In this document: positions 428 to 45,761 of the stretch, one piece after another
Numbering within the stretch: the stretch's first letter is position 1
Layout: every line of letters begins with the position of its first letter
From: a virus
Lineage: Duplodnaviria; Caudoviricetes
Virus record (IMG/VR): IMGVR_UViG_3300012990_000005
Coordinates: 1 to 46,803 of that record
DNA: 46,803 bases
Strand: one strand, 5' to 3'
The notes under the pieces: generated by a model
What the model was told of the DNA's origin: nothing
The model's input: the letters and a program-made list of their open reading frames with translations, nothing else
Database searches by the model: none
Program-made: the position numbers and the translations under genes

Positions 428-661
428 ATGGATGAAACTAATGACAAAGAAGCTTCTCGCTACATAAGAAAACTCGAAGATGCGTTAAGGGATATGGTGA
501 GTGTGGTTGAGTTTTATAAACCTCAAGGAAAGTATCATGGATATAGTTCAAACAAGTCTGGTGAATGGGAAAATTACCCTGCCGAGATAATTAAAGATAA
601 TGGCGAAAAAGCCAGACAATGCCTCGAACGCAACAAAGAATTATTGGAGGGGTTGAGATGA
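428..661 (+). CDS. Hypothetical protein
   Basis: AAGGAG RBS; 77-aa ORF; ATGA overlap with the next gene. Confidence 0.8.
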   Translation: MDETNDKEASRYIRKLEDALRDMVSVVEFYKPQGKYHGYSSNKSGEWENYPAEIIKDNGEKARQCLERNKELLEGLR

Positions 662-2666: not shown

Positions 2667-2916
2667 TATCAATTGGGATATTGTCACTGAACAAGCAAAG
2701 AGGAAGTCGCAGGAGTTCGCGAAGACCCACGCCAATCAGACACTCGAAGCGGCCTTCTATGCAGGATACATGGAGAACGCAGCGGAAAGAGAATCACTTC
2801 GAGTTATTAAAGAAAGATTAGAGTCGAAGCCAATCTCAGGGCCAGAGTTCGGACATATTGTAAGGACGAAAAACATTGCACCCGAATTACCATCATTAGG
2901 AAGCAAATACCTATGA
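2656..2916 (+). CDS. Hypothetical protein; ends SLGSKYL
   Basis: AAGGTGG RBS before ATG 2656; ATGA overlap with the helicase. Confidence 0.75.
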   Translation: MSTNINWDIVTEQAKRKSQEFAKTHANQTLEAAFYAGYMENAAERESLRVIKERLESKPISGPEFGHIVRTKNIAPELPSLGSKYL

Positions 2917-4319
2917 AGCAACCTCGACCGCACCAATTAGACTTTGCTCACTTCCACAGGCGCACAGGCCCTCACTCGGATAAGCTTAAAGGTCTTCTAG
3001 GATCAGTCGCGTTTCATGGTATGGGACTAGGTAAAACCCTCGAAGGTTTATGGGAAGCACGCGCTCTTATGGGAAACCTTAGACGTGCCGGAGTTCTAGC
3101 CCCAAAGTTCATGGTCATTTGCCCCAAGTCAGCAGTACCTACATGGCAAGTCGAGTGCTACAACGAATGTCGTGACCTCGTAGGCGATATGATAATCGTA
3201 CCATATTCTCAGCTTCATCACGCCATTAAGAAACTAAAGTACATCGACCTTAGAATGATAATATTCGATGAGAGTCACAAGCTTAAAGGTACAGACACCG
3301 ACAGGGTCAAGCAGCTTGCGGCCTTCATGCACGAAGTAGGTACAATCAATAATCAATTTAGCGGTGGAAGAATAATCATGGCGACAGGTACACCACTACC
3401 AAACCATGCAGCCGAACTTTATACTTCATGGGCATTATGTGGATCACGCCATCCGGTAGAAGCAGCAGAAAGATTAGTCGATGAGAAAAGAATTACTAAT
3501 TGGAAGTCTACCTTTGCTAATAAGATTGATATTAATTGGGTCATAGGTAAGAACAAACCGAAGAGTCAGCAACGTATGGGCCATGCTTCTAAACTCGAAG
3601 GGCTAAAGAACGAAGAGATGCTATGGCAGTTACTAAACCCTATCGTTCATTACGTACCAGTGGATAAGGCAAGCCTTCCCCCATTCACCATGCAAACAAT
3701 TAACCTAAACCTTCCGGACGATACGCTCTTAAAGAACGCAGACATCGATCGTCCGGAAGCCTACATGGCATTGGTAGAAAGAATAGCAAGAGCGAAGACA
3801 CCATATTTAATTGATTGGGTAAAGACTTTCATCGAAGGTACTAAAGAGCAGTTAATAGTTTTCTCAATGACCAGACACCCCGTTGATAAATTAAAAGAAA
3901 TGTACCCGAAGCACGTTCGTATGATAGTCGGATCAGGTGAAGGATCTTCCGCAAAAGAAAGGGCGCAGAACCTCGCAGACTTTCAACAAGGAAAGTTTCA
4001 GATACTTGCTATGACCTACGCGGCAGGGTCGGAGTCACTTAACTGTCAGAATTGTATGTACTCTCTTTACAGCGGTTACCCGTGGAATGCAGCAGCATTG
4101 GATCAGGCAATGGCGCGGACGTACCGAACCGGACAGCAGCGGCCAACATTTCACTACTTCCTTACAAGTGGAGAAAATGATCAACATATTCTAGGACTTG
4201 TGAATAGTAAGCGAGAAACAACACAAAGAGTTGAACGACTTCTCTTACAGGGAAGTCAGAACATAACAGAAAAATCTAGCGAAAATAATAATAATAATTT
4301 ACTTGCTAGATACCTTTAG
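2913..4319 (+). CDS. SNF2-family (SF2) DNA helicase
   Basis: MGLGKT Walker A, ICPKS, DESH, TGTP, and QAMARTYRTGQ motif VI. Confidence 0.93.
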   Translation: MKQPRPHQLDFAHFHRRTGPHSDKLKGLLGSVAFHGMGLGKTLEGLWEARALMGNLRRAGVLAPKFMVICPKSAVPTWQVECYNECRDLVGDMIIVPYSQLHHAIKKLKYIDLRMIIFDESHKLKGTDTDRVKQLAAFMHEVGTINNQFSGGRIIMATGTPLPNHAAELYTSWALCGSRHPVEAAERLVDEKRITNWKSTFANKIDINWVIGKNKPKSQQRMGHASKLEGLKNEEMLWQLLNPIVHYVPVDKASLPPFTMQTINLNLPDDTLLKNADIDRPEAYMALVERIARAKTPYLIDWVKTFIEGTKEQLIVFSMTRHPVDKLKEMYPKHVRMIVGSGEGSSAKERAQNLADFQQGKFQILAMTYAAGSESLNCQNCMYSLYSGYPWNAAALDQAMARTYRTGQQRPTFHYFLTSGENDQHILGLVNSKRETTQRVERLLLQGSQNITEKSSENNNNNLLARYL

Positions 4320-4361
4320 GCTAACTTAACGTACTAAATACATCTGAGGGGATGAAAATTT

Positions 4362-5651
4362 ATGCAAACTTTAACGGTAAAAATTAACCCGGCGTTTATT
4401 AGTTTTGTCAGACCATCTGACCACAGCATATTCTCACCAAGCGCAGCCGACCGATGGATACTTGGGTCATGCCCATTCTCAGTGAACTATTGCAAAGACA
4501 TTCCTAACGAATCATCAAAGTATTCTGAAGAGGGAACCTTAGCGCACAGCCTATGCGAAGCTCTTTTCCGTAAAGAGTTTTACATGATGACTATTCCTGC
4601 TGAACTCATGATGAAAATTGCCATGAGTACCGATGACAACGGAACCGAGATGTTCCAATGCGCTCACCAGTACGTCGAGATACTTAGCTTCTGGCTTGCC
4701 AATAAAGAAATAATCGGTGACGTGATCTGGTTCAAACTCGAAGCCCCGACTCCTGTATTCCCTGACAAAGGATGCTTCGGGACTTCCGACTGTATCATTG
4801 TCGGTACGAAAGCAGCAGTCATCATCGACTTTAAATATGGTAAAGGGAAGAACGTCAAAGCAGATACGCTTCAATGTAAAGTCTACGCGGCAGGACTCGC
4901 ACGCTACCTTGAAAATGTTCCAGAAGATTATAAGATTCATATTGTTATCCACCAACCTCGCACAGATATTTACCCGAAAGAACACGTCTACTCTATGCAA
5001 GAGTTGTACCACTTCTTAGGTGTGATATGGGAATCGATCTTAGCTTCGGAGAAACCTAACTTAGTTCCGAACGAGGGGAACCATTGCTATTGGTGTCCGG
5101 CCAAAAGAACTAAACTTCCTTCTAAGTTATGCCCTTCAATCACTCAGAAACAAATTGCAGTAGCAGAAGAAAAGTTCCACGAGTTCCTAGCAGATATGAA
5201 CGCACCAGTTGAAAGTTTAACTGCACCTAATCCAAAGAGAGATCAAGCGATCTTAAAACTTCACACGCTTTTCCCGATCATCAAAGACATAGTTGAATCG
5301 ACGACTGCTGAGATCGAGATGAGAATTAAAAGCGGTGAATATGTTGATGGCTTCTCATTAGAAGATGAAGTAGGAAGACGTGAGATCGTCGGCACTAATG
5401 ATCAAGAGAAAGCGCAAGCAATCTTATCGAAGTTCCCTAATGCACAGGTATGGAAACAAATCCCTGCTACAACAAAGCTTAGAACGCTTTCCGAAATTGA
5501 AAAAGATTTAGGAAAGAATAAGCTTGATGTTGTATGTACGAAAAAAGTTGTTAAAAAGGTTAAGGTACAAGACGAAGCGGCAAAGAGAACGCTTGGTCTT
5601 ATGAACCAATATGCACAAATGATTACTAACGGCAGCCAACAAGGAGAATAG
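4362..5651 (+). CDS. DUF2800 Cas4-like PD-(D/E)XK exonuclease
   Basis: SPSAADRW..C, EEGTLAH, GTSD..IIDFKYGKG, QxxxY, HQPR, and the HCYWCPAK..CP cysteine cluster. Confidence 0.9.
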   Translation: MQTLTVKINPAFISFVRPSDHSIFSPSAADRWILGSCPFSVNYCKDIPNESSKYSEEGTLAHSLCEALFRKEFYMMTIPAELMMKIAMSTDDNGTEMFQCAHQYVEILSFWLANKEIIGDVIWFKLEAPTPVFPDKGCFGTSDCIIVGTKAAVIIDFKYGKGKNVKADTLQCKVYAAGLARYLENVPEDYKIHIVIHQPRTDIYPKEHVYSMQELYHFLGVIWESILASEKPNLVPNEGNHCYWCPAKRTKLPSKLCPSITQKQIAVAEEKFHEFLADMNAPVESLTAPNPKRDQAILKLHTLFPIIKDIVESTTAEIEMRIKSGEYVDGFSLEDEVGRREIVGTNDQEKAQAILSKFPNAQVWKQIPATTKLRTLSEIEKDLGKNKLDVVCTKKVVKKVKVQDEAAKRTLGLMNQYAQMITNGSQQGE

Positions 5652-5654
5652 ACT

Positions 5655-6503
5655 ATGGCTTTCACACAAGAACAACAAAACTTTTTACGGACTGAGTTCG
5701 CTCTTAAAGGTAGGATCATGTTTCCTAATCTTCTAAGACTCAAGAAGAAAGACAAACTAGAAGATCGTGACATCTACGATACTATGTTTGTACTAGACCC
5801 AAGAGAGAACGCTAACACAATTGCACAGATCAATAACTTCATTGCTCAATGTAATCAGATCGCTCACCAAGGAATCATTCCTGCGGCAATCCTTCCTATC
5901 TGGAAAGCTTACGGGGTTCAAGGTTATCCTGATTACGTTAAACAAAATGGTCAGCCTAATCCTGATTACCTTAAAGGTTTCATGTGGGTAAATGCTTCGA
6001 CGGGTAGAGATCTACCTCCTGCGGTTTATAAGCAGACTTCTATGGGCCTATTAAAGCTTACTGAGAATGATGATGCTGAAGTTTATTCAGGTCGTAATGC
6101 TGTCATCAGTATTAACTTCTGGCCCATGCTTCCTAAACCAGAATCGAAGAACCAGAAGCGCGGATACTATATCAACGTGAAGGGCGTTCTATTGCAAGAA
6201 GGTGGAGACAGATTAGGTGGCGCACCTGACCTCGACCCTAACAAAACTTTCGGAAGTTTCCTTCAAGACATGGGCGCGCAACCAAACTTTGGTGGCTTTG
6301 GTACAGCACCTCAAGGCGCACCTCAAGCACCTACCCAACAGCAAGCTCCTCAAGGTCAACACTTCCAACAAAACCCATGGGGCCAAGCTCCTCAAGGTCA
6401 AGGTCTTCCTCCAATGGGTAACGGATTCGCTCCGAACAATGGACAATGGACAAGTTCAACAACAGCAATATCAACAACCAACATGGCCACCAGTAAACGG
6501 TAA
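5655..6503 (+). CDS. Single-stranded DNA-binding protein (DUF2815 / T7 gp2.5-like); tail apparently frameshifted
   Basis: GRIMFPNL, WVNAST..PAV, EVYSGRNA, RG..INVKGV...GDRLGG; Q/P/G-rich tail; synteny with DUF2800 and the polymerase. Confidence 0.85.
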   Translation: MAFTQEQQNFLRTEFALKGRIMFPNLLRLKKKDKLEDRDIYDTMFVLDPRENANTIAQINNFIAQCNQIAHQGIIPAAILPIWKAYGVQGYPDYVKQNGQPNPDYLKGFMWVNASTGRDLPPAVYKQTSMGLLKLTENDDAEVYSGRNAVISINFWPMLPKPESKNQKRGYYINVKGVLLQEGGDRLGGAPDLDPNKTFGSFLQDMGAQPNFGGFGTAPQGAPQAPTQQQAPQGQHFQQNPWGQAPQGQGLPPMGNGFAPNNGQWTSSTTAISTTNMATSKR

Positions 6504-6541
6504 CGGCAATGGTAATAACGGATACTAATAGGAGAATGACA

Positions 6542-7156
6542 ATGTTTAAATTAACAATCGCATTTAATAGTCTTGCAGAACTTTCTTCTTTCGTTAAGAA
6601 GATGGGCGACGAAGTGATCGGTGGGAACATCGAACACGTTCAACCAGTAACTAAAGAAAGCGTTCCTGTTGCTACTGAAGAAGTCGCAGCACCTAAGAAG
6701 AAATCTTCACGCTCAACTAAAGTAACTATGGAGGCTCCCTCTCATGACCTCGCACCAAAGTTCGATGCTGAACCAATCGGAGGATCACCATTCCCTTCAG
6801 CACCAACAAGTTTCACCCCGGGAATTGCAGCAGCACCAGTACATGCTGAACCAGTACATACTCCTGCTCCAACCACAGTACAGCCTGCACCAAGCATCAC
6901 TCCTGTGGCTCAAACTCAAGTCGATCCCGTTAGACAACAGTGGAACGCAGCTTGTGGACAATTGATTCAAGCCTTAGAGAAGACAGGACTTTCTCAAGTG
7001 GACTGCGATCAAATTATCCAAGGTGCATTTGCTTCTGCCGGATGCGCTCCGACTCGTATCACTATGTTGACGGACGCTCAAATCCAATTGTTCTACCCTG
7101 CTTTAGACCAAGCGGTTAAGCAAGTGGCAGCAGGACTGACAGCTTCTAAATACTAA
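6542..7156 (+). CDS. Hypothetical protein with Pro/Ala-rich linker and helical C-domain
   Basis: AGGAG RBS 7 nt before ATG 6542; similar architectures commonly flank DUF2800/DUF2815 genes. Confidence 0.8.
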   Translation: MFKLTIAFNSLAELSSFVKKMGDEVIGGNIEHVQPVTKESVPVATEEVAAPKKKSSRSTKVTMEAPSHDLAPKFDAEPIGGSPFPSAPTSFTPGIAAAPVHAEPVHTPAPTTVQPAPSITPVAQTQVDPVRQQWNAACGQLIQALEKTGLSQVDCDQIIQGAFASAGCAPTRITMLTDAQIQLFYPALDQAVKQVAAGLTASKY

Positions 7157-10308: not shown

Positions 10309-10590
10309 ATGACTAAAGAAGATCAAGAGAAATTTTATAAGAAAGTCGGTCGGGCTTTACAGGACGCGAGGAAACGTAGGAACATTAGTGTTTACCAACT
10401 ATCAAATTTAGTAGGTGAACATCATCTCACGATCAAAGGCATCGAAGCCGGAAGACCTCACTCCTTGCACCACGCTTATTGGATGAGAAAACATTTAGGG
10501 ATTGATGTCAACACTATCGAGATTAACAACATGGACGGAGGGGAACATGGGGAAGAAAACAGAGCAGTCAGTCTCAAACACTTCATCTAA
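10309..10590 (+). CDS. XRE-family HTH protein
   Basis: VGRALQDARKRRNISVYQLSNLVG...IKGIEAG. Confidence 0.8.
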   Translation: MTKEDQEKFYKKVGRALQDARKRRNISVYQLSNLVGEHHLTIKGIEAGRPHSLHHAYWMRKHLGIDVNTIEINNMDGGEHGEENRAVSLKHFI

Positions 10591-11092
10591 GAAGGCAGAC
10601 TCAAGTACAGGATCAAAAAAGAAAAAGGTCAATGGTGCTAAGAAAGGTAAGCAATTTGAAAGAGAGATTGCCACGGCACTAGGGCATATCTTTCCAGATG
10701 CGCAGAGAGAGTTAGAATACCAAGCAGCAGGGAATAGAGGGACTGACATATCACACACCGACCTTTTCCAAATTCAATGCAAACGGTATGCCGGATACGC
10801 TCCTATCGGAAAGATCCACGAAATTAAATTAGAATCAGAGAATCATATTCCGGTCTTGGTAACTCAAGGAAACCGGATGGAGTGCATGGCCGTACTTCCA
10901 TTTGATAAGCTTGTCACCCTTATTGAGATTGCGTATGGCCATGCACCTCGTTTTATTAATCCGTACTTAAAAAATCCAAAGCAAGAGATTCAAAAGTTCT
11001 TATCATCACAGGAGCTTCCTCGATTGCCCGAAGCTATTGAAGTCGAGGTCGTTAAGAAAGAAGAACCAGTTTCATTATCAACGTATCTGTAG
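10547..11092 (+). CDS. Hjc-like Holliday-junction resolvase (PD-(D/E)XK); ends SLSTYL
   Basis: KKGKQFEREIA...GTDI...IQCKR; GGAGG RBS before ATG 10547. Confidence 0.8.
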   Translation: MGKKTEQSVSNTSSKKADSSTGSKKKKVNGAKKGKQFEREIATALGHIFPDAQRELEYQAAGNRGTDISHTDLFQIQCKRYAGYAPIGKIHEIKLESENHIPVLVTQGNRMECMAVLPFDKLVTLIEIAYGHAPRFINPYLKNPKQEIQKFLSSQELPRLPEAIEVEVVKKEEPVSLSTYL

Positions 11093-11101
11093 TTAGCAAA
11101 G

Positions 11102-13204
11102 GTGACACTTGTGCAAGATTTAAAAGCAATTCGATTCATGGCCGGACAAAAAATCTCCCACGATTATATGGGTTCGGAAGTTAATACGTTCAGCTACCGC
11201 GACCTATGGGAGAGAGGTATTACTGAAGTAGGGATTCCTTGTAAGCAGAACCGTTTAATAGTTATCGACGTGGACGTAGCAGGAGCCTCCCATCAAAATG
11301 ACGGACGAGAGTATTGGGCAAACTTCTGTCGTGAGTTCGGAGTACCACCAACATACACAATCAAAACAAAGTCAGGTGGATTCCACTTCTACTTTAAACT
11401 TCCCGAGGCAATTAACCACGACACCTTTGCCCCGCCGGGACAATTAGCCCCGGGCGTGGATGTTAAGTGGAACGGGTGGGTCGCCGCCCCTCCAACACCG
11501 GGCTACGTTATCCTTAACGGAAGTCTAGCGGAGATCGCTGATTGTCCTCCAAGCCTTATGGCAGAAATGGCAAGGATCAGGAACGGAAGTTTATCTAAGA
11601 CCTTCGACGTTACTGACCCTAATGCCGTAACGACTCTTCACTCTCCCTTTACTCAGATCCAATTAATTGATCTATCCGAAAAGATTTCTTGGGTTCAACA
11701 GAACGCTTCACTCTCCCGATCAGATTGGAGGGATGGACTCTTTGCTCTTAAAGCAGGGATTGATGACGAAGCGGTACTTGACGAGTTCGTTTGTAGGTGG
11801 ACTCAGAACAAGAACTATCATCCGGGTGATGAAGAGGAAGCTCGTAAGATCGTTGCACGCGCAGATAAGTTTGGCCCGATCGGGCCCGGCTCGATCTTCT
11901 CGATCATCAACCAAGTTAGAAAACTCCAAGGAGTTCCTGACATCGAAACGCCATTTACGATTCAAGAAATCTTAGATCGTTCTCGAGTACATAAAAGTAT
12001 TAAGAAGGATGGCTCTCTTGTCATCGAGGCATCAGAGTCAAACGCAGCCGCACTACTAGGAGCTATCATTGATGAAGAAACTTTATACCATGACGTTAGA
12101 AGTGACCTATACATTTATAAAGGTAGGCCTCACTCGGACGCTGAACTTACTTCGATCTTCTTACCGATGCTTCAATCAACTGCCTTCGGTTTGGGACTTG
12201 AAAAATTTAGGAGGGCAACAGTATCCGCAGGCATCGATGTTCTCATGGCAACAAGAAGGAAAGATCCTCACCGCGTCTACCTACAGTCGCTTAAATGGGA
12301 TGGTATTCCACGCGTGGAAAAATTCTTTATTGATTATGTCGGACTTGAAGACACCCCATATATTCGAGTCGCAGGAAAAAACCTATGGTCATCTCTTGCG
12401 GCAAGAGGACTCCACCCCGGATGCAAGCTTGACTCCATGTTTATCATTGAAGGTTCTGAAGGTATCAGGAAGTCCTCTCTTATCGAAGCTATTGCAGGAC
12501 AATATACGTATGCTCCAAGCCAACGAGATATTGCCACGGACATCGACGTTCTAAGACAGATGCACCAATCGGTAATCACCGAGCTTCCTGAGTTAGTAGG
12601 TATTGTCGGGCAAAACTCAGAGTTTGTTAAAGCTTTCTTAGCTAAACCTTTTGATAACATCAGAAGTCTTTTTGCCCGTAAAGCTACAAGAAACGATAGA
12701 GGTTTTATTATCATCGGTACTACCAATAGTGATAAGTACCTCTCAATGGATATGGGATCGAGAAGGTTCTGGCCAATAGTAATTCCTTCAGGCTGTTCAA
12801 TCGACACTAAGGGAATTATTAATAGCCGTGACCAATTGTTTGCGGAAGGTATCGCTCTCTATAAAGACGGCCACGAATATTGGAATATGCCGAAAGAACT
12901 TCTGAACCCTATCGTAGCTAACAAAGTCGTGGAGGATCCTATCACTAATGCAATTCGCGAGATGGTAGGAGAGTTCACAGGTATCTTCACGATCCTCGAT
13001 GTCTACCGCAAACTTGAGGCAGGAGGCTTTATTAACAGAGGACTCACTACTCAGGTAAGTAACAGGATCGAAGGTGCTTTAAAACGAATTGGCTGCGAGA
13101 GGGACGGGCATGGTTGGAAGACTAAGGCAATCGTCGTCAACCAGATGATCAACACCATGGTACAAGTCGCGAACCAACAGTCATTAATGAGTCAGTATTT
13201 ATGA
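11102..13204 (+). CDS. Primase-polymerase / PriCT / VirE-family helicase fusion
   Basis: GIPC..LIVIDVD, TKSGGFHFYF, GVDVK..GWVAAPP; WDGIPRVE, GCKLD, EGSEGIRKSS, GTTN...GSRRFWPI. Confidence 0.92.
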   Translation: MTLVQDLKAIRFMAGQKISHDYMGSEVNTFSYRDLWERGITEVGIPCKQNRLIVIDVDVAGASHQNDGREYWANFCREFGVPPTYTIKTKSGGFHFYFKLPEAINHDTFAPPGQLAPGVDVKWNGWVAAPPTPGYVILNGSLAEIADCPPSLMAEMARIRNGSLSKTFDVTDPNAVTTLHSPFTQIQLIDLSEKISWVQQNASLSRSDWRDGLFALKAGIDDEAVLDEFVCRWTQNKNYHPGDEEEARKIVARADKFGPIGPGSIFSIINQVRKLQGVPDIETPFTIQEILDRSRVHKSIKKDGSLVIEASESNAAALLGAIIDEETLYHDVRSDLYIYKGRPHSDAELTSIFLPMLQSTAFGLGLEKFRRATVSAGIDVLMATRRKDPHRVYLQSLKWDGIPRVEKFFIDYVGLEDTPYIRVAGKNLWSSLAARGLHPGCKLDSMFIIEGSEGIRKSSLIEAIAGQYTYAPSQRDIATDIDVLRQMHQSVITELPELVGIVGQNSEFVKAFLAKPFDNIRSLFARKATRNDRGFIIIGTTNSDKYLSMDMGSRRFWPIVIPSGCSIDTKGIINSRDQLFAEGIALYKDGHEYWNMPKELLNPIVANKVVEDPITNAIREMVGEFTGIFTILDVYRKLEAGGFINRGLTTQVSNRIEGALKRIGCERDGHGWKTKAIVVNQMINTMVQVANQQSLMSQYL

Positions 13205-13404
13205 AGCATGAAGTTCAAAGGTGCGGAAGCCCTGACTGCTTAAAGTGCCATTGTCAGGAGTGCGAAGTCGCTCGACGATCTATCCATGAGGTAGGGATTG
13301 AAGTAGACATAAGAACTCAGGAAGTTCTAAGTGTTCGCTTTGGTTGGTTCGTTCCTGCTAGTCAATTCATGTTGGATTTAAGAGTCTTAGTGAAGGTAGA
13401 GTAA
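13201..13404 (+). CDS. Small Cys-rich hypothetical protein
   Basis: ATGA-coupled; CGSPDCLKCHCQEC. Confidence 0.6.
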   Translation: MKHEVQRCGSPDCLKCHCQECEVARRSIHEVGIEVDIRTQEVLSVRFGWFVPASQFMLDLRVLVKVE

Positions 13405-13407
13405 GGC

Positions 13408-13480
13408 ATCCGGAAAAGTAACTGCTCGGGATGATCTTATCGAGGGGATGAGACTTTAGGAGGGAGCTACCTTTCCGGAT
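13408..13480 (-). ncRNA. Putative ~73-nt small RNA with a 16-bp closing stem and C/U-rich anti-SD loops
   Basis: Arms 13408-13423 and 13465-13480 pair fully on the - strand (two G-U pairs, which would be A-C mismatches on +); the predicted +1 coincides with the first stem base. Confidence 0.65.
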
Positions 13481-13486
13481 ACAGGT

Positions 13487-13538
13487 AGACTATCAATTCC
13501 TTAAAGCATTAGACAACCGTAAAAATCAACCTTACCAT
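13487..13538. promoter_or_regulatory. Overlapping divergent sigma70-like promoters
   Basis: Minus: TTGTCT(13516-13511)-N18-TAGTCT(13492-13487). Plus: TAGACA(13510-13515)-N17-TACCAT(13533-13538). Confidence 0.6.
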
Positions 13539-13544
13539 TTAATT

Positions 13545-13725
13545 AATCCACGAACTGCTAGACATTGCGTTCTAGTAAGCGTGCTTGATTCCTCTGTGGC
13601 AGTAGCCTTGGGAAACGAGTGCAATCTACACTCTGATTCAGCATCACGGGTGATGTGTCCGCATCCAGAGGGCGGTGAACTCCTGAGTATCCGGTGGCGT
13701 GCTTTTAATCACCCGAGCCACCACT
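13545..13725 (+). ncRNA. Putative ~180-nt structured non-coding RNA
   Basis: No convincing ORF; several hairpins and a multibranch domain closed by CCTCTG/CAGAGG; G-U pairs favour the + strand; lies just downstream of the plus promoter. Confidence 0.5.
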
Positions 13726-14148
13726 TTAAATTTTATCGGTCTTAATTATCCTTGAGAGTTCTTTGGCCCTAGCTCCGACTTGATCTGCCCACTTGGAGAG
13801 TAACATCTCCTGAGAAGCAAGATCGTACTGGCCCTTTGACATTGCGAGGTTAAATCTTTTGAAACCTTTAAAGCGATTAATCCCAAGATTGAAAAGCATA
13901 TTTACTATGACCGCTTTCCTAGCAGGAGATAAGGTATGATAGTAGTTGAGGCTGGAAGCATCCTTGAGGGAAGTCTCAAGGTCGTTGATCAAGAGATGGT
14001 CTGCTTGCTCCTTAGTGATGGTAAGACCTTTCTGTACCTCGGGGCCAGTATGCCCATAGCCGATAGTCCATACCCCTTCCGTGCATTGATAGGCGACGAG
14101 TCTGAGCCCTTCATGTCGTTTGAGCATTGGGAGTAATAGGTTCATCAT
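13726..14148 (-). CDS. Endolysin, GH24 (T4-lysozyme-like) muramidase
   Basis: HEGLRLVAYQCTEGVWTIGYGH (E-x8-C-x5-T), NMLFNLG, SKWADQVGARA. Confidence 0.93.
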   Translation of the reverse strand: MMNLLLPMLKRHEGLRLVAYQCTEGVWTIGYGHTGPEVQKGLTITKEQADHLLINDLETSLKDASSLNYYHTLSPARKAVIVNMLFNLGINRFKGFKRFNLAMSKGQYDLASQEMLLSKWADQVGARAKELSRIIKTDKI

Positions 14149-14276
14149 TTCTTTTTACCACCGGGCTTTGGGATATGCCCTTTGACTTTAGGTTTTGTGC
14201 CAGGCTTAATGCCACGTTCTTTTAATATCTCTTCAAGACGTTCAGTGTTCTTATTTTTTAAAGGTATCTTTGCCAT
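14145..14276 (-). CDS. Small Lys/Pro-rich basic peptide (43 aa)
   Basis: GAGG RBS; MAKIPLKNKNTERLEEILKERGIKPG...GGKKK; stop overlaps the endolysin start. Confidence 0.6.
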   Translation of the reverse strand: MAKIPLKNKNTERLEEILKERGIKPGTKPKVKGHIPKPGGKKK

Positions 14277-14289
14277 CGTGTACCTCGCG

Positions 14290-14628
14290 TTATAGTTTTG
14301 GCATCCTCTTTAGGCCGAAGTTTAAAGTTTTGAACCATGTGAGATCGTCGAAGTAGAGAGTTCTTTTTTCCCACTTCACGCAAAAGATAAATTTCTTCAC
14401 ACAAATTTCTGATTGATATGAAGGTTTAATCTTTCCGTCAGTAGGATCTACTCTTAATGGATAGAAAGCATCTTCAGGATGGAAGGCAATGTCTGGCGCA
14501 GGAATGTCGGTATTACTTTTTAAGACTTCCGTGTTCTCTGATGACAAGCTCTGCGAGTTGTTCGGCATCGAAGCGCAACCGATCAAGTTTAAGGTCGCTC
14601 CAATTATCAATGCCTTTATTAAGTTCAT
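14290..14628 (-). CDS. Lipoprotein, putative outer-membrane spanin
   Basis: MNLIKALIIGATLNLIG-C lipobox, Pro-rich; starts inside the upstream gene in another frame; lysis context. Confidence 0.6.
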   Translation of the reverse strand: MNLIKALIIGATLNLIGCASMPNNSQSLSSENTEVLKSNTDIPAPDIAFHPEDAFYPLRVDPTDGKIKPSYQSEICVKKFIFCVKWEKRTLYFDDLTWFKTLNFGLKRMPKL

Positions 14629-19719: not shown

Positions 19720-22700
19720 TTATTCTTCCATCCGAGCTAGTGTTTGTTGCTCTTTCCGCATATAAGCTTCATCTTCTTTCTGCTCATCACTCTTAAGGTT
19801 CTCACCCCATCCAACCATTTTACCAATGAGTGAAGTCGGAAGCCCTGTCGTGATGGTGATAGTATCCATTAGTCCGGCTATATCTTTCGCGGACAGGTCA
19901 ACACCTTTACTGATATTCTTACTCGCTTGAATAGATTTAGCAACACTATTGACAGGTTTAGATAAACCCGGTGACGCTGAACCCGATCCAAACTGAATAC
20001 TAGAAGTGACCATACGGACTAAAGGGAATGGAAGCGCGGTGTCAATAGAACCAAGAGCTGCCCTTGTGGTCATTGCTTTCATTTTTCTAGCTAGTGCTTC
20101 ATCCTCATCCTCTTCATCATCTTCCTTAGTAGACTCTGCGAACATGCCATCTATAAGGTTTGGCACGATCCATGCAAGCATACCTATTACAAGAACCGCC
20201 TTGATCTTATTAGCTCTTGATTGATCTCTCATAGTTTCCACTTGCATAAGATTATGCATAGCTATTGGAACTGAAGTGACCATCATTAGGAGTTTATGAA
20301 GATCGTCGCCTCGACTTATGTTCGACATCGAAGATACGTCAGGGGAAGACTGAGAAGCGTTTACCATATCATCGGCATAGTGAACGGCATCTTGTTCAGA
20401 TAAACCTTTCTCTTTTCCAAGTTCGTAGGCCGCGTGCCAAGTACATACATCGACTTGGTTCTGAGTCATCTGGATAAAGAACCATCGGAAGTCGTTGACT
20501 TTCTCCGCTGTCCAACTAATCCAATCGAAGTTCGTATTTATTTTTTCAAAAGATCTCACCATCATTTCCTGAGAGTCGGACATACGTGCTCTCATTACTG
20601 GTGATCTATCGGTCATGAATTTTCTTGATTCTTTACGTGCGCCCATTCCTGTCTTCACGTTAGCGGCAATAAGTCTTCCAAGACCCATGACTCCAAAGCC
20701 TTTCTTATCCAAGCGTGCGGCAGCAGGAAGGTATCCGAAATACTGTTTAACGACTGAAAGGAATCCACCTAAGTACATGGCCGTGTTCACGTTGTTACGA
20801 AGATGTCTGGCCATCGATTGATGAAATCCATCTTTGTACTCAGTGTACTCCTGCATCTTAACGGCATTGAACCATCGAACGATAATACCTTCCTTGGCAT
20901 TACCGATGATGCCGGGTCTTCGTGTTTCTAAAGCACGACGAACTGGTTCCGATTCAATGACTTTACCAAAATCTAATAATGGGTTTCTTAGGTAAGCAAG
21001 GTTTAATGATGCTGAGAGGTACGAAGAAATCCTGCTCATATCGAGGTTTAATGGGCCATAATTCTCGTCACGTTCATTAGTCATGCCTGTATTCATATTC
21101 GGGTAGAGCTCATTAACTGAGTACCCCATTGAATCAACGTTCATCATTGAATCAATTTTTCCGGCAGTCATAATATCTTGGAGCCCTGCGACCGGAACAT
21201 ATCCACCTGTGAAAGTTCCGAGAGAGTTTTTAACTTCCCATGCCTCGATCTTACCCATGTTAAAGTGATCTGATCTTCTCATGGCCTTTTTAACAAGAGG
21301 GTGAATCTCTTCGAAGATCGCCCAGATTCCGTTATACATATCGAAATCTTTCTTAGTTAAGTTACCTTCTGAAATCATCCTCTCAACGAAGGTGTTCCAG
21401 CTTGCATAATCTGGTTCCATGGCAAGAGTTTCTTGGTTGAACTTAGCAATGCCATGGCCAAGAAGGAACTTCTTAGCACCTGACTCTGAGCCCATGAGGA
21501 GCATGGCCATGTGAAGTTCACCTCTGTTCTTGAAGATGAACCCGTTATCACCTAGCTCTTTAGCGATGATCGGACGACTAGACTTATCGACGTAATCCAT
21601 TTTCCAAGTTGAAGGAACTGGAAGACGAGTGACAAGCGGAGCGATGATACCACGATCGATCGAAGCTTCTTTCATTAACGCTGACAAGCGGTCGCGGTAG
21701 CCCATGAGAGCAAGAGTTCTTACTGCTTCAGAGTCCACTACTTTATAAAATACTTTTCCTAGTGCTGATTTTGCAAAAGCTTCAGGAGATGGATAGAGGG
21801 ATTCGAATACTGATCTTAAGTTAAGGGTATCTCTTCTGAGTTTACCACTTAAAGTTTCACTAGAAACATCTACTACGTTACCGTCCTTGATTTCATTCTC
21901 AATGGCTTCAGCGATGTTTACGATATTTTCTCTGCGCTCACCTAGCTCGATTTCTTTTGATTGACGAGCGACTGATTGGATAGTCTTAAGAACTCCACCA
22001 AGGCTCACATATCCTGCGACTGAAGCGTTTCTTCCATATCTTCCGGCCGCGACTCTCTCATAATTATTGAGTCTTGAGTTCACTAGCTCGATCATGTCAT
22101 CGGTAATTCCTGAAAGTTCTGATACATCACTTCTTTCAAGTCTTGGAAGTCGTTGTCCGATTGCCGCAAGTTGAATGATCTGCTTACCGAATGACATCAC
22201 ATCGGTGTCATAACGTCTTGCTAGGTCTTTAGAACGAGCGTACTTGTCGAAGGTCTTGATCCTAGCGGTCGTTTGAGCGATAGCTTTTTGGGCCTTAACG
22301 GCTGTCTTATAGGCGAAGAAGTGAAGTGCTTCCTTCATCTTACTGTCCAAAGCTTCCATGATATTATTCTTACGGAAACTTCTGGCCGCATCTCTCCCGT
22401 GGCGACCCATATCGTCTAGGTACTTCTTAGCTGTAAACTTGAAGGCCCCTGCATCTAGTACCATTCGATTACCTTCTGCCTTAAAAGCTTCCTTAGATGG
22501 TGCTCCAACATAGGCAGGAGGGTTAATTAGCTTCTCGATCAAAGCTTTATATTTGCCCGGAAACTTAGTCATAAGGATCTTAACTTCTTCAAGGAGGAGT
22601 CTTTCCTTCCCTTTACGTTGAAGCTCATTGACTACGACTTCATGAATTTCATCTTCTGTTTTAATTGTCGGGAACTCAGTCTTAATCTTCTGATCAATTA

Positions 22701-25700
22701 GTTCCTCGATCATTGAATCTCGTTGTGCTGTTTCTGTTAGAAGGTCAAGCATCTCGTTTGGTGAAGTAATACCATTCATTTGCATGAAAGCTTCTACTGG
22801 TAGCCCACCTTTCTTCTTACCTGTCATCATTTCACGAGGGACTAATTCTTTAATTTTCTCAGCTAGGGCCATATCGTTATTGCACAGAACTTTAAGAACA
22901 GAATCAAATGAGAGTCGAGGATCAGGAGTGTTACCTTCTGGGTCAGTACGGAACTCATTATAGGCATCTTTAAATTGAGCAAGCATTAACATAGCTCTAC
23001 GTGAATCCACTTCATCGGTAGCTTCTTGGGTAATTCTATCAAGCTCTTTATCAATTAAGACTTCACGTTCACGAATGCTCTTGTTCCATATTTTTGTATA
23101 GCCTCGACCTAAAGCTTCTGACCGAGCGTCTTTAATTAGCTCAATATATTTCTGCCCATCTTTACCTAGCATATCTGCTGAGAATAAAGGTTCAGGGAAC
23201 ATCGGATAAGATTGTTCTTCGAGAGCATTAGAAGCTCCAAGAATACCTTCGAACATTCTTTCGATCTTCGGAGTAATCTTTAAAGGAGGGTATACGCTAG
23301 TGTTAAAGATAGATTTAATACGCTCAATGACTGCGACTACATATTTACGGAAGTCAGAGAGAAGTCTGGCCATTGCCGTATTCTCAAGCTTACCTTCTAG
23401 GAAATAAAGTTCTGCTGTACGAGCAAATGTCTCATGGATTCTTTCTTCCTGAACTGGATCCATGTTAAGTAGCTGGTCAATAGAGTCTAATCCAAAAGCT
23501 TCAGCAGCGATTCTCATAGAATCAAGGTATGCTCTCTGCTGTTCAGTCATGCTTTCTTCAGGGATTGCGGAAACGTATTCATAATCAATCGCCATCTCAT
23601 GAAGATACGAGTGGCCGAACTCATGAATAATAGTTTTAACATCTGCCTTATTTTCACCATCGAAGGTGAAGGCGACTGTATAAGGAGCATCCTTCTTAGG
23701 AAGTGCTGAGAAGGTTCCGTATGCTTCGAGTTTACTTTTACCTGTAGTCTTACCAATCTTTAATTGTTTTGCGACTTCGGTGAAAGGTCTGTTGATAAGT
23801 GTGGCCCTATGTTGCATACGACCAAATTGGATTTCTGTCCATGCCTCGATCATCTGCTCATCAGTATCTTTTGGAAGGGAGCGTTTAAGTCTTGATAGGA
23901 TGGAGAAGAATACTTTCTTTTCTTCATCACTTCTAAACTTGTTATAAAGTTGAACAGGCCGAAGCTTTAAGTTTTGTGGGTCGTTTGGATCAGCTTCGAT
24001 GATCTCAATAGTTCCGCCATCTTCGTTAGGTGCGGCATCGTTTCCTTCTGCTCTTTCGTAGAATTTTTTAACGATCTTCACGTCATCTTCAGTGAAGACT
24101 ACAAAGTTTTGTTTACCTGATTCAAGTCCTTTATAAGTAATTCCGTTGAACCCTTTTGCGGTGAGGGTTATTGCGAACTTCTTATCCTGTTCGTGTGTTA
24201 AGCTGCTGAGCAATAGTCCAAGAGTTACGAACTCTTTATTTATAGGTTCGCCTTTCAAGAATTTTTTAAAGTATTCTGGTTGAGGGTTATATGTCCCTAC
24301 CATTCCCCAAGTCGAGGGTTCTGTCTCCCCTTTGTCACTGATTCCTGCTTCAATTAAAGAGTCTCTTATCGACTTCTCTATTTCTGGTGGAACTGAGTCC
24401 AACGTCGAGTCGAGGTCTACCCATAAACCTTTAGGGAGTTTAACCTCAAAGACTTGGCCTTTCTTTCTATTTTTTGTTTTATCTACGTATTCTTGAATTG
24501 TTTTAATTTGTTCGGCAGGTAGGCTTTCCGCATCCCACGTCTTCTCCCAATTGTCGTCTTGTCTAAAAGCGGATAATGCTTCTACGTGACTGTCAAAACC
24601 AAAGAAGTTATTATCTTCAAAAATTTTATAAACCTCTCCGGGAACAGTATCGGCTTTGATTAAGCTCTTTCTATACCACTCCGCTACGTTAGGATCTGTA
24701 CTAAAGTAAAGCCCATACCCGTAAGCTTGAGCACCTTCCCCTGTACCAATTGCACCTTCTCTGAATCTATCAAAGTCGTGAGGTGAACCATGAAAAGCTG
24801 TACGATCAAAGAATACTGTCGGTTTCTTTTCAACCATCTCGATCTGAGCGTTAGCCTCAAGTCCATTGTATTCGTTGCCATTGAATCGAGCGACTGCATC
24901 GAGTTCAGGTCTGTCTTCAGTTATGAATATCCAATCAGAGATAGGTATAGCTATTGAAGTATCGCTCTCTCTAGCTTGAGCGTATTCTGCTCTTAACGAT
25001 GGAGGAAGCTTCTCGATTACAAACTTCATCGCCTCATCTCTTGAACCAAAGTGTGCTTCAAGTTCTACCGGAGAAATTCTTACTACGTCAGTATTAGCTT
25101 CTCTTACGATCTCCTGCTCTACTGATGGCTCAATAGATTCAGGATCGTCGATGATAGGGTCATTAGGGTTCTCTGATACTGGCTTCTTATTTAATGCTTG
25201 CTTGATTAATTCTTTAGTGGCTTCAGGGTTGTTTTTAACTTCAGGGTTCTTCTCGATCTGCGCTCTAAGTTCAGATACAGCAGCGAGGTCTTCGTTTGCT
25301 TTAGAAGCTTTTGAAAGTATCTGTGCTGTTTTAATCGCACCGTACTTGATACCTGTCATTCCGGCGGCAGGGCCAGTAGAAAGTATCGCTTCGTCCAATC
25401 CCTCTTTATAATTTTCTTCTAAGTTCTTAAGGCCATCGCCTCTATGAAGGTCAACCGCTTGAAGTGCTGCAATCTGAGAAGCACCCTCTTCGACTGCCTT
25501 ACCTCCGACTTCCACTCCTGCGGTAACGACTTTCTGTGCCACCCCAGGTTTTTTCATTACGTGCTTAGATACACCATTACCAAGCTTTCCCCCCACTAAA
25601 GAGAATAAAGCATCAGAAACACCCATAGTTAAACCATAGATGTCTGCTTCACGAATCCACTTCTGAACTCGAGCAGGATCGCTGAAAGCTAAATCAATGT

Positions 25701-27051
25701 TTGGTTTTCCAGTGATTGGATCACGGAAATCATCAAGCTGCTTAGTCATGTGCTCAGAGAAAGACAGGATATGAGAAGCTGTGTAGGCACTAATCGCCCC
25801 TGCGGCCGGGCCTCCTGCCACTGTCCCTGCTAAAGCTGATCCCATGATCGCAGCCGTAGAACCTTGTGACTGTGCCATCACTTGCATAGCAGGCTCAGGA
25901 AACTTAGATACTGCTTTAAGTTTATCTATGAGTCCGGCGTTTTTATCGAAGAATAATTTTTGGAAAGATTGCGATGCCTTCGATGTTAAAGCGTTGGCCT
26001 GTCTTTCTTCGTCGATCTGAGAAAGAATATTTGATGCTTCTGACTTACTTAAATGTCCCGTCATCATTCCTAGATAAGTAAGACTTTCTTTTATCATTAA
26101 TGGGTTTTGGGCTAATGCTTTTTCCCAATCACCTCTTGTATCTGGATTTAACTTCCTAGCTGCGGTTACAGTCTTTGGGGCCCAATTGCCAGACTCTCTA
26201 AGCATCACGTAGTTATTAGGATCGCGGTCTACCCACTCAGCGACTTCAGGGAAGTTCTCAGCGATAAGAGCATGGCCCTGTTCCGCGACTACATCTTTAA
26301 ATGGTTTTAAAGCAAGACGATCTCTTGCCTCTTGATATGACATTCCATATTGATCTGATAATCTTTTAGCTTCATTATGACGAGTGACTTCTTCGACGTT
26401 GGCAATTACTGAAGCGTCCGAGAGTCCTTGCTTTCTACGTTCAGGATCGGCTTCTTGAGCAAGCTCAAAGTTTCCTTCCTCAACTTCCTTAATGGCATTG
26501 GCCACTAAATCCGGCTGATCTTGAGGGGCATCGACTTCTGCTATGGCCTGATCTAAAAGAGCGTCTATGCCTACGTTTGAACTTGAAGCTGCTTGTGCTG
26601 ACTTAAGTTGATCCCACATAGCTTTACGCTTCTGAACTCTTTTCTTTAGCACATCTACTTCGACTTTCATGCCAAGCTTTTTATCAAACGCTTTTGTATA
26701 TGATAAAAGTTCTTGAGAGGCTTCTGCATCTTTTCTTGCATTAACTAGGTCGATGAAGTTCTTCATTCCGCCCGGGCCAAGATTGTAGTGCATATCAACT
26801 AAAGCATCTTGCTGACCTTGAGTTAAATCTTCTCTCTTAACTGTAGAAGATAAGAAGTCTTCTGCTTCTTTAACTCGAAGGCGCATATCACTATCTGCCT
26901 TCTCGCGAGTAACTACTTCATTAGGGTTAGTTGTTTGTTTCCCGAAACCTACTGCCAGTTTACCTGTATTTAAATCTGGTTGAGCTTTTTCTACAAACCC
27001 TTCTTCATTACGTAAGAAATCATAAAACCCTTCTGATGCTTTAATTCCCAC
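19720..27051 (-). CDS. Large internal virion (ejection) polyvalent protein: lysozyme, ADP-ribosyltransferase-like and zincin domains
   Basis: N-terminal EEG..D...GFG, QQDALVDMHYNLG; AFHGSPHDFDRF..IGTGEGAQAYGYGLYFS; TIIHEFGH...HETFAR; 2443 aa in the T7 gp16-equivalent position. Confidence 0.85.
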   Translation of the reverse strand: MGIKASEGFYDFLRNEEGFVEKAQPDLNTGKLAVGFGKQTTNPNEVVTREKADSDMRLRVKEAEDFLSSTVKREDLTQGQQDALVDMHYNLGPGGMKNFIDLVNARKDAEASQELLSYTKAFDKKLGMKVEVDVLKKRVQKRKAMWDQLKSAQAASSSNVGIDALLDQAIAEVDAPQDQPDLVANAIKEVEEGNFELAQEADPERRKQGLSDASVIANVEEVTRHNEAKRLSDQYGMSYQEARDRLALKPFKDVVAEQGHALIAENFPEVAEWVDRDPNNYVMLRESGNWAPKTVTAARKLNPDTRGDWEKALAQNPLMIKESLTYLGMMTGHLSKSEASNILSQIDEERQANALTSKASQSFQKLFFDKNAGLIDKLKAVSKFPEPAMQVMAQSQGSTAAIMGSALAGTVAGGPAAGAISAYTASHILSFSEHMTKQLDDFRDPITGKPNIDLAFSDPARVQKWIREADIYGLTMGVSDALFSLVGGKLGNGVSKHVMKKPGVAQKVVTAGVEVGGKAVEEGASQIAALQAVDLHRGDGLKNLEENYKEGLDEAILSTGPAAGMTGIKYGAIKTAQILSKASKANEDLAAVSELRAQIEKNPEVKNNPEATKELIKQALNKKPVSENPNDPIIDDPESIEPSVEQEIVREANTDVVRISPVELEAHFGSRDEAMKFVIEKLPPSLRAEYAQARESDTSIAIPISDWIFITEDRPELDAVARFNGNEYNGLEANAQIEMVEKKPTVFFDRTAFHGSPHDFDRFREGAIGTGEGAQAYGYGLYFSTDPNVAEWYRKSLIKADTVPGEVYKIFEDNNFFGFDSHVEALSAFRQDDNWEKTWDAESLPAEQIKTIQEYVDKTKNRKKGQVFEVKLPKGLWVDLDSTLDSVPPEIEKSIRDSLIEAGISDKGETEPSTWGMVGTYNPQPEYFKKFLKGEPINKEFVTLGLLLSSLTHEQDKKFAITLTAKGFNGITYKGLESGKQNFVVFTEDDVKIVKKFYERAEGNDAAPNEDGGTIEIIEADPNDPQNLKLRPVQLYNKFRSDEEKKVFFSILSRLKRSLPKDTDEQMIEAWTEIQFGRMQHRATLINRPFTEVAKQLKIGKTTGKSKLEAYGTFSALPKKDAPYTVAFTFDGENKADVKTIIHEFGHSYLHEMAIDYEYVSAIPEESMTEQQRAYLDSMRIAAEAFGLDSIDQLLNMDPVQEERIHETFARTAELYFLEGKLENTAMARLLSDFRKYVVAVIERIKSIFNTSVYPPLKITPKIERMFEGILGASNALEEQSYPMFPEPLFSADMLGKDGQKYIELIKDARSEALGRGYTKIWNKSIREREVLIDKELDRITQEATDEVDSRRAMLMLAQFKDAYNEFRTDPEGNTPDPRLSFDSVLKVLCNNDMALAEKIKELVPREMMTGKKKGGLPVEAFMQMNGITSPNEMLDLLTETAQRDSMIEELIDQKIKTEFPTIKTEDEIHEVVVNELQRKGKERLLLEEVKILMTKFPGKYKALIEKLINPPAYVGAPSKEAFKAEGNRMVLDAGAFKFTAKKYLDDMGRHGRDAARSFRKNNIMEALDSKMKEALHFFAYKTAVKAQKAIAQTTARIKTFDKYARSKDLARRYDTDVMSFGKQIIQLAAIGQRLPRLERSDVSELSGITDDMIELVNSRLNNYERVAAGRYGRNASVAGYVSLGGVLKTIQSVARQSKEIELGERRENIVNIAEAIENEIKDGNVVDVSSETLSGKLRRDTLNLRSVFESLYPSPEAFAKSALGKVFYKVVDSEAVRTLALMGYRDRLSALMKEASIDRGIIAPLVTRLPVPSTWKMDYVDKSSRPIIAKELGDNGFIFKNRGELHMAMLLMGSESGAKKFLLGHGIAKFNQETLAMEPDYASWNTFVERMISEGNLTKKDFDMYNGIWAIFEEIHPLVKKAMRRSDHFNMGKIEAWEVKNSLGTFTGGYVPVAGLQDIMTAGKIDSMMNVDSMGYSVNELYPNMNTGMTNERDENYGPLNLDMSRISSYLSASLNLAYLRNPLLDFGKVIESEPVRRALETRRPGIIGNAKEGIIVRWFNAVKMQEYTEYKDGFHQSMARHLRNNVNTAMYLGGFLSVVKQYFGYLPAAARLDKKGFGVMGLGRLIAANVKTGMGARKESRKFMTDRSPVMRARMSDSQEMMVRSFEKINTNFDWISWTAEKVNDFRWFFIQMTQNQVDVCTWHAAYELGKEKGLSEQDAVHYADDMVNASQSSPDVSSMSNISRGDDLHKLLMMVTSVPIAMHNLMQVETMRDQSRANKIKAVLVIGMLAWIVPNLIDGMFAESTKEDDEEDEDEALARKMKAMTTRAALGSIDTALPFPLVRMVTSSIQFGSGSASPGLSKPVNSVAKSIQASKNISKGVDLSAKDIAGLMDTITITTGLPTSLIGKMVGWGENLKSDEQKEDEAYMRKEQQTLARMEE

Positions 27052-32802: not shown

Positions 32803-32828
32803 ATTCCCTCCTGACCATCGAGGTTAAA

Positions 32829-35520: not shown

Positions 35521-35788
35521 TCTGTATCCCCTTAGTTGCTTGGTTCTTTGCTTCTGTCATCATTTTAAAATATAAATCTTCTGAAGCATCAGTTGTTATG
35601 CCCGATAAGAAAAGACCAATCTGCCTTCTCCCCACCGACTTTAATATTTGATTAGTGTCACCTTCGAAATCGTGAAAGACTTTGCACTCACCGAGTAGTC
35701 GCCAAATAAATCGACGACCTTGTTCTGTAGACATAACCCAATAAACGTCATCACGTTCTTGGCGTTCTTTCTTTTCTAATTCACTCAT
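35411..35788 (-). CDS. BPP-1 Bbp19-like protein
   Basis: DVYWVMSTEQGRRFIWRLLGEC...GRRQIGL. Confidence 0.8.
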   Translation of the reverse strand: MSELEKKERQERDDVYWVMSTEQGRRFIWRLLGECKVFHDFEGDTNQILKSVGRRQIGLFLSGITTDASEDLYFKMMTEAKNQATKGIQNDDTKQPTDADIFEQFHSGHAYDSDSSGGFSGDQYF

Positions 35789-35802
35789 CCCCTCAAATCC
35801 CT

Positions 35803-45548: not shown

Positions 45549-45761
45549 ATGGGAACAAGAGTAAGAACTAAAATAACTAAACAGAAAACTGAAAAGACAA
45601 AGGACACACTAGACTTTAAAGAAGTGAAAACTGTTTTTACTGATACTGAATGCAATGAACATATTTTAAAAGGCTGGAAGATTTTGCACGTTGGACTATC
45701 TCATGTAGACGCAAATGGTTTCAATGCCAAGAACACCTTTATTCTAGGTCTGGAACGATAA
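45549..45761 (+). CDS. Hypothetical protein
   Basis: AAGGAG RBS. Confidence 0.75.
   Translation: MGTRVRTKITKQKTEKTKDTLDFKEVKTVFTDTECNEHILKGWKILHVGLSHVDANGFNAKNTFILGLER

Follow-up and report, generated by a model that had tools for sequence, protein, structure and literature searches.

Genomic setting of the locus

The window, meaning the whole stretch of 46,803 nucleotides that was analysed, holds a podophage of ~46.7 kb with BPP-1-like gene content, and because the end of the record repeats its start, the record is probably circular. Its capsid protein is at most 48% identical to that of the closest cultured phage, and BLASTN comparison of positions 13200-14000 with annotated phages gave no match. 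A capsid relative (44% identity) is also found on a Bdellovibrio bacteriovorus chromosome (L281), which is too distant to name a host. Two operons converge at the site of two predicted RNAs, RNA-1 and its divergent partner RNA-2, in the following arrangement:

Replication operon, rightward: SNF2 helicase, DUF2800 exonuclease, Enc34/DUF2815-type SSB, DNA polymerase, RusA and primase-helicase
11102..13204, + strand: primase-helicase gene (VapE type), at the end of the rightward replication operon
13201-13404, + strand: ORF of 67 aa, 3' of the primase-helicase gene, its stop 3 nt short of the RNA-1 3' end
13408..13480, - strand: RNA-1, a predicted sRNA of ~73 nt with a closing stem of 16-18 bp around an inner hairpin, its 3' end placed from the stem
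13442..13452, - strand: RNA-1 seed, CUCAUCCCCUC
13487..13516, - strand: RNA-1 promoter-like site, TTGTCT-N18-TAGTCT
13726..14148, - strand: endolysin gene, the last of the virion/lysis operon; RNA-2 ends just ahead of its stop
Virion/lysis operon, leftward (- strand): terminates with the endolysin gene at 13726

Other features of the genome were noted in passing. Better starts, supported by Shine-Dalgarno (SD) sequences, exist at 6542 for ORF 6509-7156 and at 658 for ORF 619-1593. An internal virion protein of 2443 aa (19720-27051, - strand) has an N-terminal lysozyme domain and a weak ART-PolyVal (ADP-ribosyltransferase) match under the Pfam cut-off. The word GGTGACA occurs at the start region of the primase-helicase gene (11095-11110 in the window, and in orthologues) in 12 of 14 genomes. 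The SNF2 helicase (2913-4319), RusA (10502-11092) and the primase-helicase (11102-13204) carry a common C-terminal tail, which mostly reads L/I-D/E-x-L/F-I in relatives and takes the form L-x-x-Y-L in all three proteins of the window; the SSB (5655-6503) and the product of the next gene (6542-7156) end in related S/G-F-I/V tails. Judged from their sequences, these tails look like a co-evolving docking or degradation tag.

A predicted closed-stem RNA with its own promoter-like site

The initial annotation had described a 16-bp stem that pairs fully only on the - strand and includes two G-U pairs. This stem is present, with arms at 13465-13480 and 13408-13423 that enclose 41 nt; it is the longest inverted repeat within 13200-14300 and can be extended to 18 bp (13406-13482). 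Folding of both strands, one of the checks proposed with that annotation, gave -28.1 kcal/mol for the - strand (z -6.89; 0 of 200 shuffles equally stable) against -26.5 kcal/mol for the + strand (z -2.61). In the MFE fold the apical loop is the CCCUC of the seed (13446-13442), and the 10-mer that matches the DUF2800 leader has a mean unpaired probability of 0.62 in the window, versus 0.38 for the remaining interior of RNA-1.

The promoter-like site that was expected beside the stem, with TTGTCT at 13511-13516 and TAGTCT at 13487-13492, ends 6 nt upstream of it and is weak in the window alone, being absent from the consensus-scan list and reaching a shuffle p of 0.046. No U-tract terminator was called 3' of the stem on either strand. 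For this reason the length of ~73 nt was taken from the stem, to which the 3' end would be trimmed back.

The enclosed loop contains UCAUCCC twice, as annotated. The second copy is not a conserved RNA motif, and it was rejected as such, the same letters encoding the last residues of the primase in L001/L004. Within RNA-1, 12 bases (13428-13439, + strand) are identical to these last primase codons and sit in the primase frame, yet outside any ORF of the window; this likeness is a vestige or chance.

Complementarity to gene starts in the window

RNA-1 is complementary to the following leaders in the window:

4346..4355, + strand: SD region of the DUF2800 gene (4362-5651), which encodes a PD-(D/E)XK-type exonuclease; predicted RNA-1 target
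35784..35794, - strand: SD and start codon of the Bbp19-like gene (35411-35788); predicted RNA-1 target
646..660, + strand: leader of the DUF3310 gene (start 658); possible RNA-1 target in the window only, with an imperfect duplex of -24.9 kcal/mol

The first two, complements of 10 and 11 nt, were found exactly where they had been reported. The complement of the 11-mer occurs in the window only at the RNA-1 locus and at the Bbp19-like start, and shortening to the 10-mer adds only the DUF2800 leader. Complements of 10 and 11 nt to the seed segment, the part searched, fall only at distant gene starts. Joined by the second AUCCC, the Bbp19 duplex reaches -29.7 kcal/mol in the window. A third complement, to the SD of tail tubular A (32805-32812), exists as described but is not conserved across phages (p 0.61), and this gene was dropped as a conserved target. 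Among 5000 shuffles of the window's loop in which the core was kept fixed, 4.0% reach a match of 11 nt and 1.6% reach two matches of at least 10 nt. Complementarity within the window alone is modest.

Architecture and strand in related phages

Searches with the primase-helicase returned 22 distinct relatives (44-60% primase identity) with DNA past the end of the gene, making 23 loci with the window. Duplicates and near-duplicates were left out (L002, L003, L006, L177, L179, L180, L182-184, L188, L190, L193, L197-199 and L201-213, among others), as were fragments lacking the end of the primase gene (L181, L187, L196) and distant partial matches (L171-173, L214-233).

A common design lies 3' of the primase-helicase gene in 17 of the 23 loci (16 of 22 relatives and the window). 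It comprises a sigma70-like promoter, a gap of 4-7 nt and an RNA of 61-87 nt with paired ends and an anti-SD seed in the apical loop; retention of the stem in relatives, another of the proposed checks, is seen as a closed-stem design. RNA-1 was not found at this position in G013, G014, L169, L176, L185 and L189. The ends of the RNAs in relatives were placed by eye, guided by an automatic stem scan, and in nearly all loci the predicted fold is a closing stem that encloses a single inner hairpin with a single apical seed. In many relatives the 3' end lies 0-5 nt from the primase stop.

Across the family the closing stems have almost no sequence in common and retain their pairing. Because the stem sequence is not conserved, a stem-sequence pattern scan of 120 loci aligned none to the RNA-1 region; in two-motif scans (35 loci), only the L001/L004 group were true homologues among the matches listed. 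Neither formal pair counts nor a covariance model could be drawn from plain MAFFT alignments of the two RNAs, the quality of which was too low.

Several observations bear on the strand. The 230 closing-helix pairs include 31 G-U pairs on the anti-SD strand versus one A-C. Scored with a weight table, the promoter-like site beats composition-preserving shuffles (p<0.05) in 9 of 14 loci (Fisher 2.4e-8, 11 lineages) and is not significant in the other 5; the lower MFE falls on the opposite strand in 5 of 14. Three of the 17 loci (G010, L178 and L195) carry the cassette in inverted orientation; here too the C-rich strand lies downstream of the promoter and folds better. Because the inverted cassettes keep the order of promoter and C-rich strand, it is the promoter that the structured strand tracks, rather than the primase mRNA. 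The position of the promoter, the bias towards G-U pairs and the inverted cassettes together fix the anti-SD strand as the one predicted to be transcribed.

Co-variation of seed and leaders

Target tests were carried out on 12 near-complete relatives and one fragment, with gene starts called by a simple SD heuristic that places some of them wrongly. The loop seed varies between phages and matches each phage's own DUF2800 leader, over 10 nt in the window, 9 in G001, 11 in G004, 9 in G002, 7 in G005, 13 in G006, 8 in G007, 6 in G008, 7 in G009, 9 in G011 and 9 in G010. Own leaders are matched by 8.9 nt versus 6.2 nt for foreign ones (permutation p 1.4e-4, 10 genomes). When the window, G001 and G004, which have the same seed, were collapsed and G010 was added, the values were 8.6-8.8 nt own versus 5.7-5.9 nt foreign (exact p 1.1e-5 to 2.7e-4, 9 genomes), a collapse that controls relatedness only roughly because the primase tree is mostly unresolved. 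Leaders matched by at least 8 nt number 4.5 own versus 1.7 foreign (p 1.5e-5).

DUF2800 ranked first of 21 gene groups (p 1e-4), followed by the giant internal virion protein (p 8.5e-4) and Bbp19 (p 4.4e-3, or 2e-4 to 1.7e-3 with G010 added); Bbp19 co-varies more weakly than DUF2800. In G010, which was recognised once the test was set up, the top two of 62 leaders are those of Bbp19 (11 nt) and DUF2800 (9 nt), the same targets as in the window. The steadiest predicted target of RNA-1 is the DUF2800 exonuclease gene, while Bbp19, RusA, the giant internal virion protein and small ORFs are predicted targets in some phages.

A concern raised at the outset was that such matches might be no better than those of any generic anti-SD sequence. 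When the 5-nt SD core was kept and the remainder shuffled, the combined Fisher p over 9 genomes was 7.7e-7, and the RNA-1 match therefore exceeds a generic anti-SD. The seed is more unpaired than the remaining interior in 10 of 10 RNAs (G008 left out). A blind scan for promoter and stem gave 69-87 permissive candidates per genome, among which RNA-1 ranks first, alone or in a tie, as complement of the DUF2800 leader in 8 of 11 genomes (not counting a self-overlap in the window), comes second in G009 and falls outside the top two in G005 and G008.

Agreement is not uniform. RNA-1 of G008 misses its own DUF2800 leader (6 nt, energy rank 52 of 57), and G005 and G009 match theirs by 7 nt only (core-fixed p 0.23 and 0.22). 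A wobble-polarity test at the edges of the seeds gave no support for antisense pairing (own 17:31, foreign 66:76). In G013 (L265-L267), one extended SD word is repeated in five gene leaders, and neither the blind scan nor a complement search gave a convincing RNA-1 in this record, which is 92% complete; phage-specific SD words may therefore exist without RNA-1. G014 (L270) has a relocated RNA-1-like hairpin at 45683-45745 (- strand), with its own promoter and just upstream of the small terminase gene, that is complementary by 10-12 nt to six leaders of G014. As this RNA was discovered via the complement search and had been missed by the blind scan, it was kept out of the tests quoted here.

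A predicted second structured RNA in the same cassette

RNA-2 lies on the other side of the shared promoter region and is made up of these elements, listed with its tentative target:

13510..13538, + strand: divergent promoter-like site TAGACA-N17-TACCAT, a consensus match only, whose -35 overlaps that of RNA-1; predicted to drive RNA-2
~13545..13722, + strand: RNA-2, a predicted double pseudoknot with approximate ends
13551-13582, + strand: 5' hairpin, with variable hairpins downstream
13648-13654 with 13708-13714, + strand: long-range helix of 7 bp
13680-13683, + strand: CUCC linker
From 13685, + strand: hairpin whose loop pairs with 13717-13722, which makes the double pseudoknot
6519..6535, + strand: leader of the gene for a 204-aa hypothetical protein (6542-7156) that follows the DUF2815/Enc34-type SSB; tentative RNA-2 target

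The fold was recognised first by eye and then by a descriptor search, which matched 13 of 23 loci (the window, L005, L164, L167, L168, L170, L192, L194, L211, L178, L186, L191 and L195) versus 9 of 920 shuffled regions. G005, L178 and L195 match although they were unused in the design of the descriptor. The 5' strand of the long-range helix begins 29-35 nt ahead of CUCC in 12 of the 13 loci, and three helices of the 3' domain vary in sequence between phages with their pairing kept. RNA-2 had no Rfam match in the window or in 15 related loci; likeness to pistol, twister and HDV-like folds was weighed and judged a misfit.

Tested against leaders generally, the RNA-2 linker gave p 0.15 (one count in G011 being a self-overlap). 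It tracks the leader of the gene after SSB with an exact p of 0.0018 in 9 genomes, this gene having been chosen post hoc and three of its orthologues assigned by position, and the match extends to 14 nt in G009; the leader is proposed as a tentative target. RNA-2 of G008 matches by 9 nt the DUF2800 leader that RNA-1 of the same phage misses. Mutual complementarity of RNA-1 and RNA-2 amounts to 5-10 nt and follows no consistent pattern.

Comparison with known systems

C4 of phages P1 and P7 is an RNA of ~77 nt with a closing stem, whose loops, pairing in trans, cover part of the ribosome-binding sites; the change of a few bases sets its phage specificity between P1 and P7 (available portion of PMC5320573). 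Like C4 (RF01695), RNA-1 has a loop complementary to ribosome-binding sites that co-varies in a phage-specific manner. It differs from C4 in having one seed loop, not three stems with loops a' and b', and in that its targets are dispersed over both operons and not confined to the adjacent antirepressor operon of a temperate phage. The phages also differ, those with RNA-1 lacking an integrase and the 62 ORFs of the window including no antirepressor family (PHROGs). Since the predicted +1 lies at the base of the stem, RNA-1 would need no RNase P precursor of the C4 kind. An Rfam search, suggested with the initial annotation, yielded no family for the RNA-1 locus at gathering score in the window or in 15 related loci, and the C4 model RF01695 was absent even among four weak matches at E<=10. 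Of the two analogues that had been named, RNA-1 is predicted to work like P1/P7 C4 without being a member, and it departs from P4 CI.

P4 CI is a small phage antisense RNA that silences P4's own replication genes; it is processed out of the very transcript that it regulates and brings about termination at the flanking seqA/seqC (PMC4825925, portion available). RNA-1, unlike CI, has its own predicted promoter and matches SD sequences 9-23 kb away.

The nearest described arrangement, as far as the accessible text of PMC3203893 goes, is that of the SAS of cluster K mycobacteriophages, together with its opposite copy. These extended SD words occur at many gene starts, with a single copy in opposite orientation in four genomes, and the binding factor is left open; SAS is one 13-bp word conserved across cluster K, and that text describes no RNA (PMC3203893). 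In the RNA-1 phages, by contrast, the word varies with the phage, and its opposite copy is located in the apical loop of a closed-stem RNA that is anchored by a promoter.

In RsaE, RNAIII, cuckoo/CcsR and the streptococcal csRNAs, a single-stranded C-rich loop pairs with the SDs of several mRNAs. These RNAs are chromosomal and have conserved seeds and terminator ends, whereas in RNA-1 the seed is the part that varies and tracks the targets, and RNA-1 matched no Rfam family. T4 RegA and RegB are phage-encoded proteins that damp the phage's own early mRNAs at SD regions; RNA-1 would likewise damp the mRNAs of its own phage, as an RNA and not a protein. The accessible portions of PMC12197685, PMC2864571 and PMC10690425 do not describe the RNA-1 family, and the seed and DUF2800 strings are absent from the six supplementary files searched for the catalogue of 10,006 RNAs in PMC10690425.

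Proposed function and alternative explanations

RNA-1 is a conserved, predicted phage RNA gene, uncatalogued in Rfam, whose product probably acts in trans as an antisense repressor of the phage's own genes. The trans-acting antisense reading of the initial annotation, with phage targets, is supported by the architecture of 17 of 23 loci, by the fixed strand and by the co-variation of seed and leader. A host sigma70-type promoter would transcribe RNA-1, and the exposed anti-SD loop would begin to pair over the SD of phage mRNAs. Pairing at ribosome-binding sites would block translation, giving repression and not activation. The purpose favoured here is a copy-number-responsive, dose-dependent damper in lytic growth. 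Made from a host-type promoter, RNA-1 would build up as time passes and genomes multiply, and its rise would lower the output of enzymes that process DNA and of minor virion proteins while the phage turns to packaging.

The same antisense RNA could instead confer homo-immunity or a dormant carrier state, that is, an RNA-only superinfection exclusion. We regard this as possible though doubtful; its probability overlaps that of the damper, as the mechanism is common to both and the purpose alone differs. Seeds and targets diverge together here, as does C4 specificity between P1 and P7 (available portion of PMC5320573), replication-operon genes are among the targets and the promoter is of host type. 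Against homo-immunity, virion genes are targeted as well, and tyrosine integrases and serine resolvases were found in none of the 13 genomes of the group, which makes classical lysogeny unlikely. A close prophage was sought in GTDB and not found: no primase relatives were detected there, and the capsid relatives were only distant (at most 49% identity, versus 53-69% within the phage group).

An extended reading takes both RNAs together. The divergent cassette would be a repressor-free, RNA-only life-cycle switch of integrase-less phages in which RNA-1 seeds set immunity groups and co-evolve with their own ribosome-binding sites, while RNA-2, through its double pseudoknot, would sense a protein or ligand and uncover another anti-SD seed, directed at the same replication operon. 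This joint scheme seems unlikely as a whole.

It is rather improbable that the shared words are sites for a phage protein, either an RNA-binding repressor or a DNA-binding one at an operator, with the hairpin copy serving as a sense-strand decoy or operator. Co-variation alone carries no polarity and so leaves this explanation some weight; the negative wobble-polarity test and the repeated leader words of G013, where no RNA was found, agree with it, as do the SAS of cluster K, for which either an RNA or a protein was considered as the bound factor (PMC3203893, text available). Promoter position, G-U bias and the three inverted cassettes nevertheless favour the anti-SD strand, the complement of the G005 seed contains no GGA, and a host protein of fixed specificity would not yield phage-specific matches of 9-13 nt. 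Sponging of CsrA/RsmA by the + strand, offered earlier as an alternative and counted here as a special case of a protein site, is disfavoured by the same strand evidence; RNAs that sequester CsrA/RsmA present GGA motifs in loops, whereas the predicted strand of RNA-1 is C-rich.

A generic anti-SD RNA aimed mainly at host mRNAs, for host shut-off or retuning, is very unlikely. The core of RNA-1 is an anti-SD-like word, and phage sRNAs that act on host mRNAs exist, such as PreS and DicF (PMC12197685, accessible portion); yet cognate complements are over-represented, and not avoided, among the leaders of the phage itself, and the matches go beyond those of controls with a fixed core. RNA-1 may still have host targets in addition. 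Least credible is a terminator or 3'-end protector of the converging replication and lysis operons with loop matches as by-products, which would suit the position of the hairpin at the convergence point and near the primase stop of many relatives, but not its loop of 35-55 nt (41 nt in the window, where an intrinsic terminator has a short G+C stem, a loop of 3-8 nt and a U-tract), the lack of a called terminator-like U-tract, its own promoter, its inversion in three loci and relocation in G014, or the co-variation with targets.

Implications

The phage sRNAs covered in the accessible portion of one review are mostly cis-antisense, regulators of lysogeny or directed at host mRNAs (PMC12197685). 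Here, an RNA-1 family uncatalogued in Rfam lies next to a second structured RNA in one cassette. Because only its architecture is conserved, sequence-based searches miss RNAs of this class. RNA-2, a putative double-pseudoknot RNA that matches no Rfam family, is a structural target in its own right.

If the antisense repressor reading is right, the RNA-1 family would be a case, spread over ~12 integrase-less genomes, in which a trans-acting seed and the ribosome-binding sites of the same phage have undergone compensatory evolution in nature, and its sets of RNAs and leaders would provide ready cognate and non-cognate pairs for a reporter test. RNA-1 may also help to account for repeated SD words that are phage-specific, the SAS of cluster K among them.
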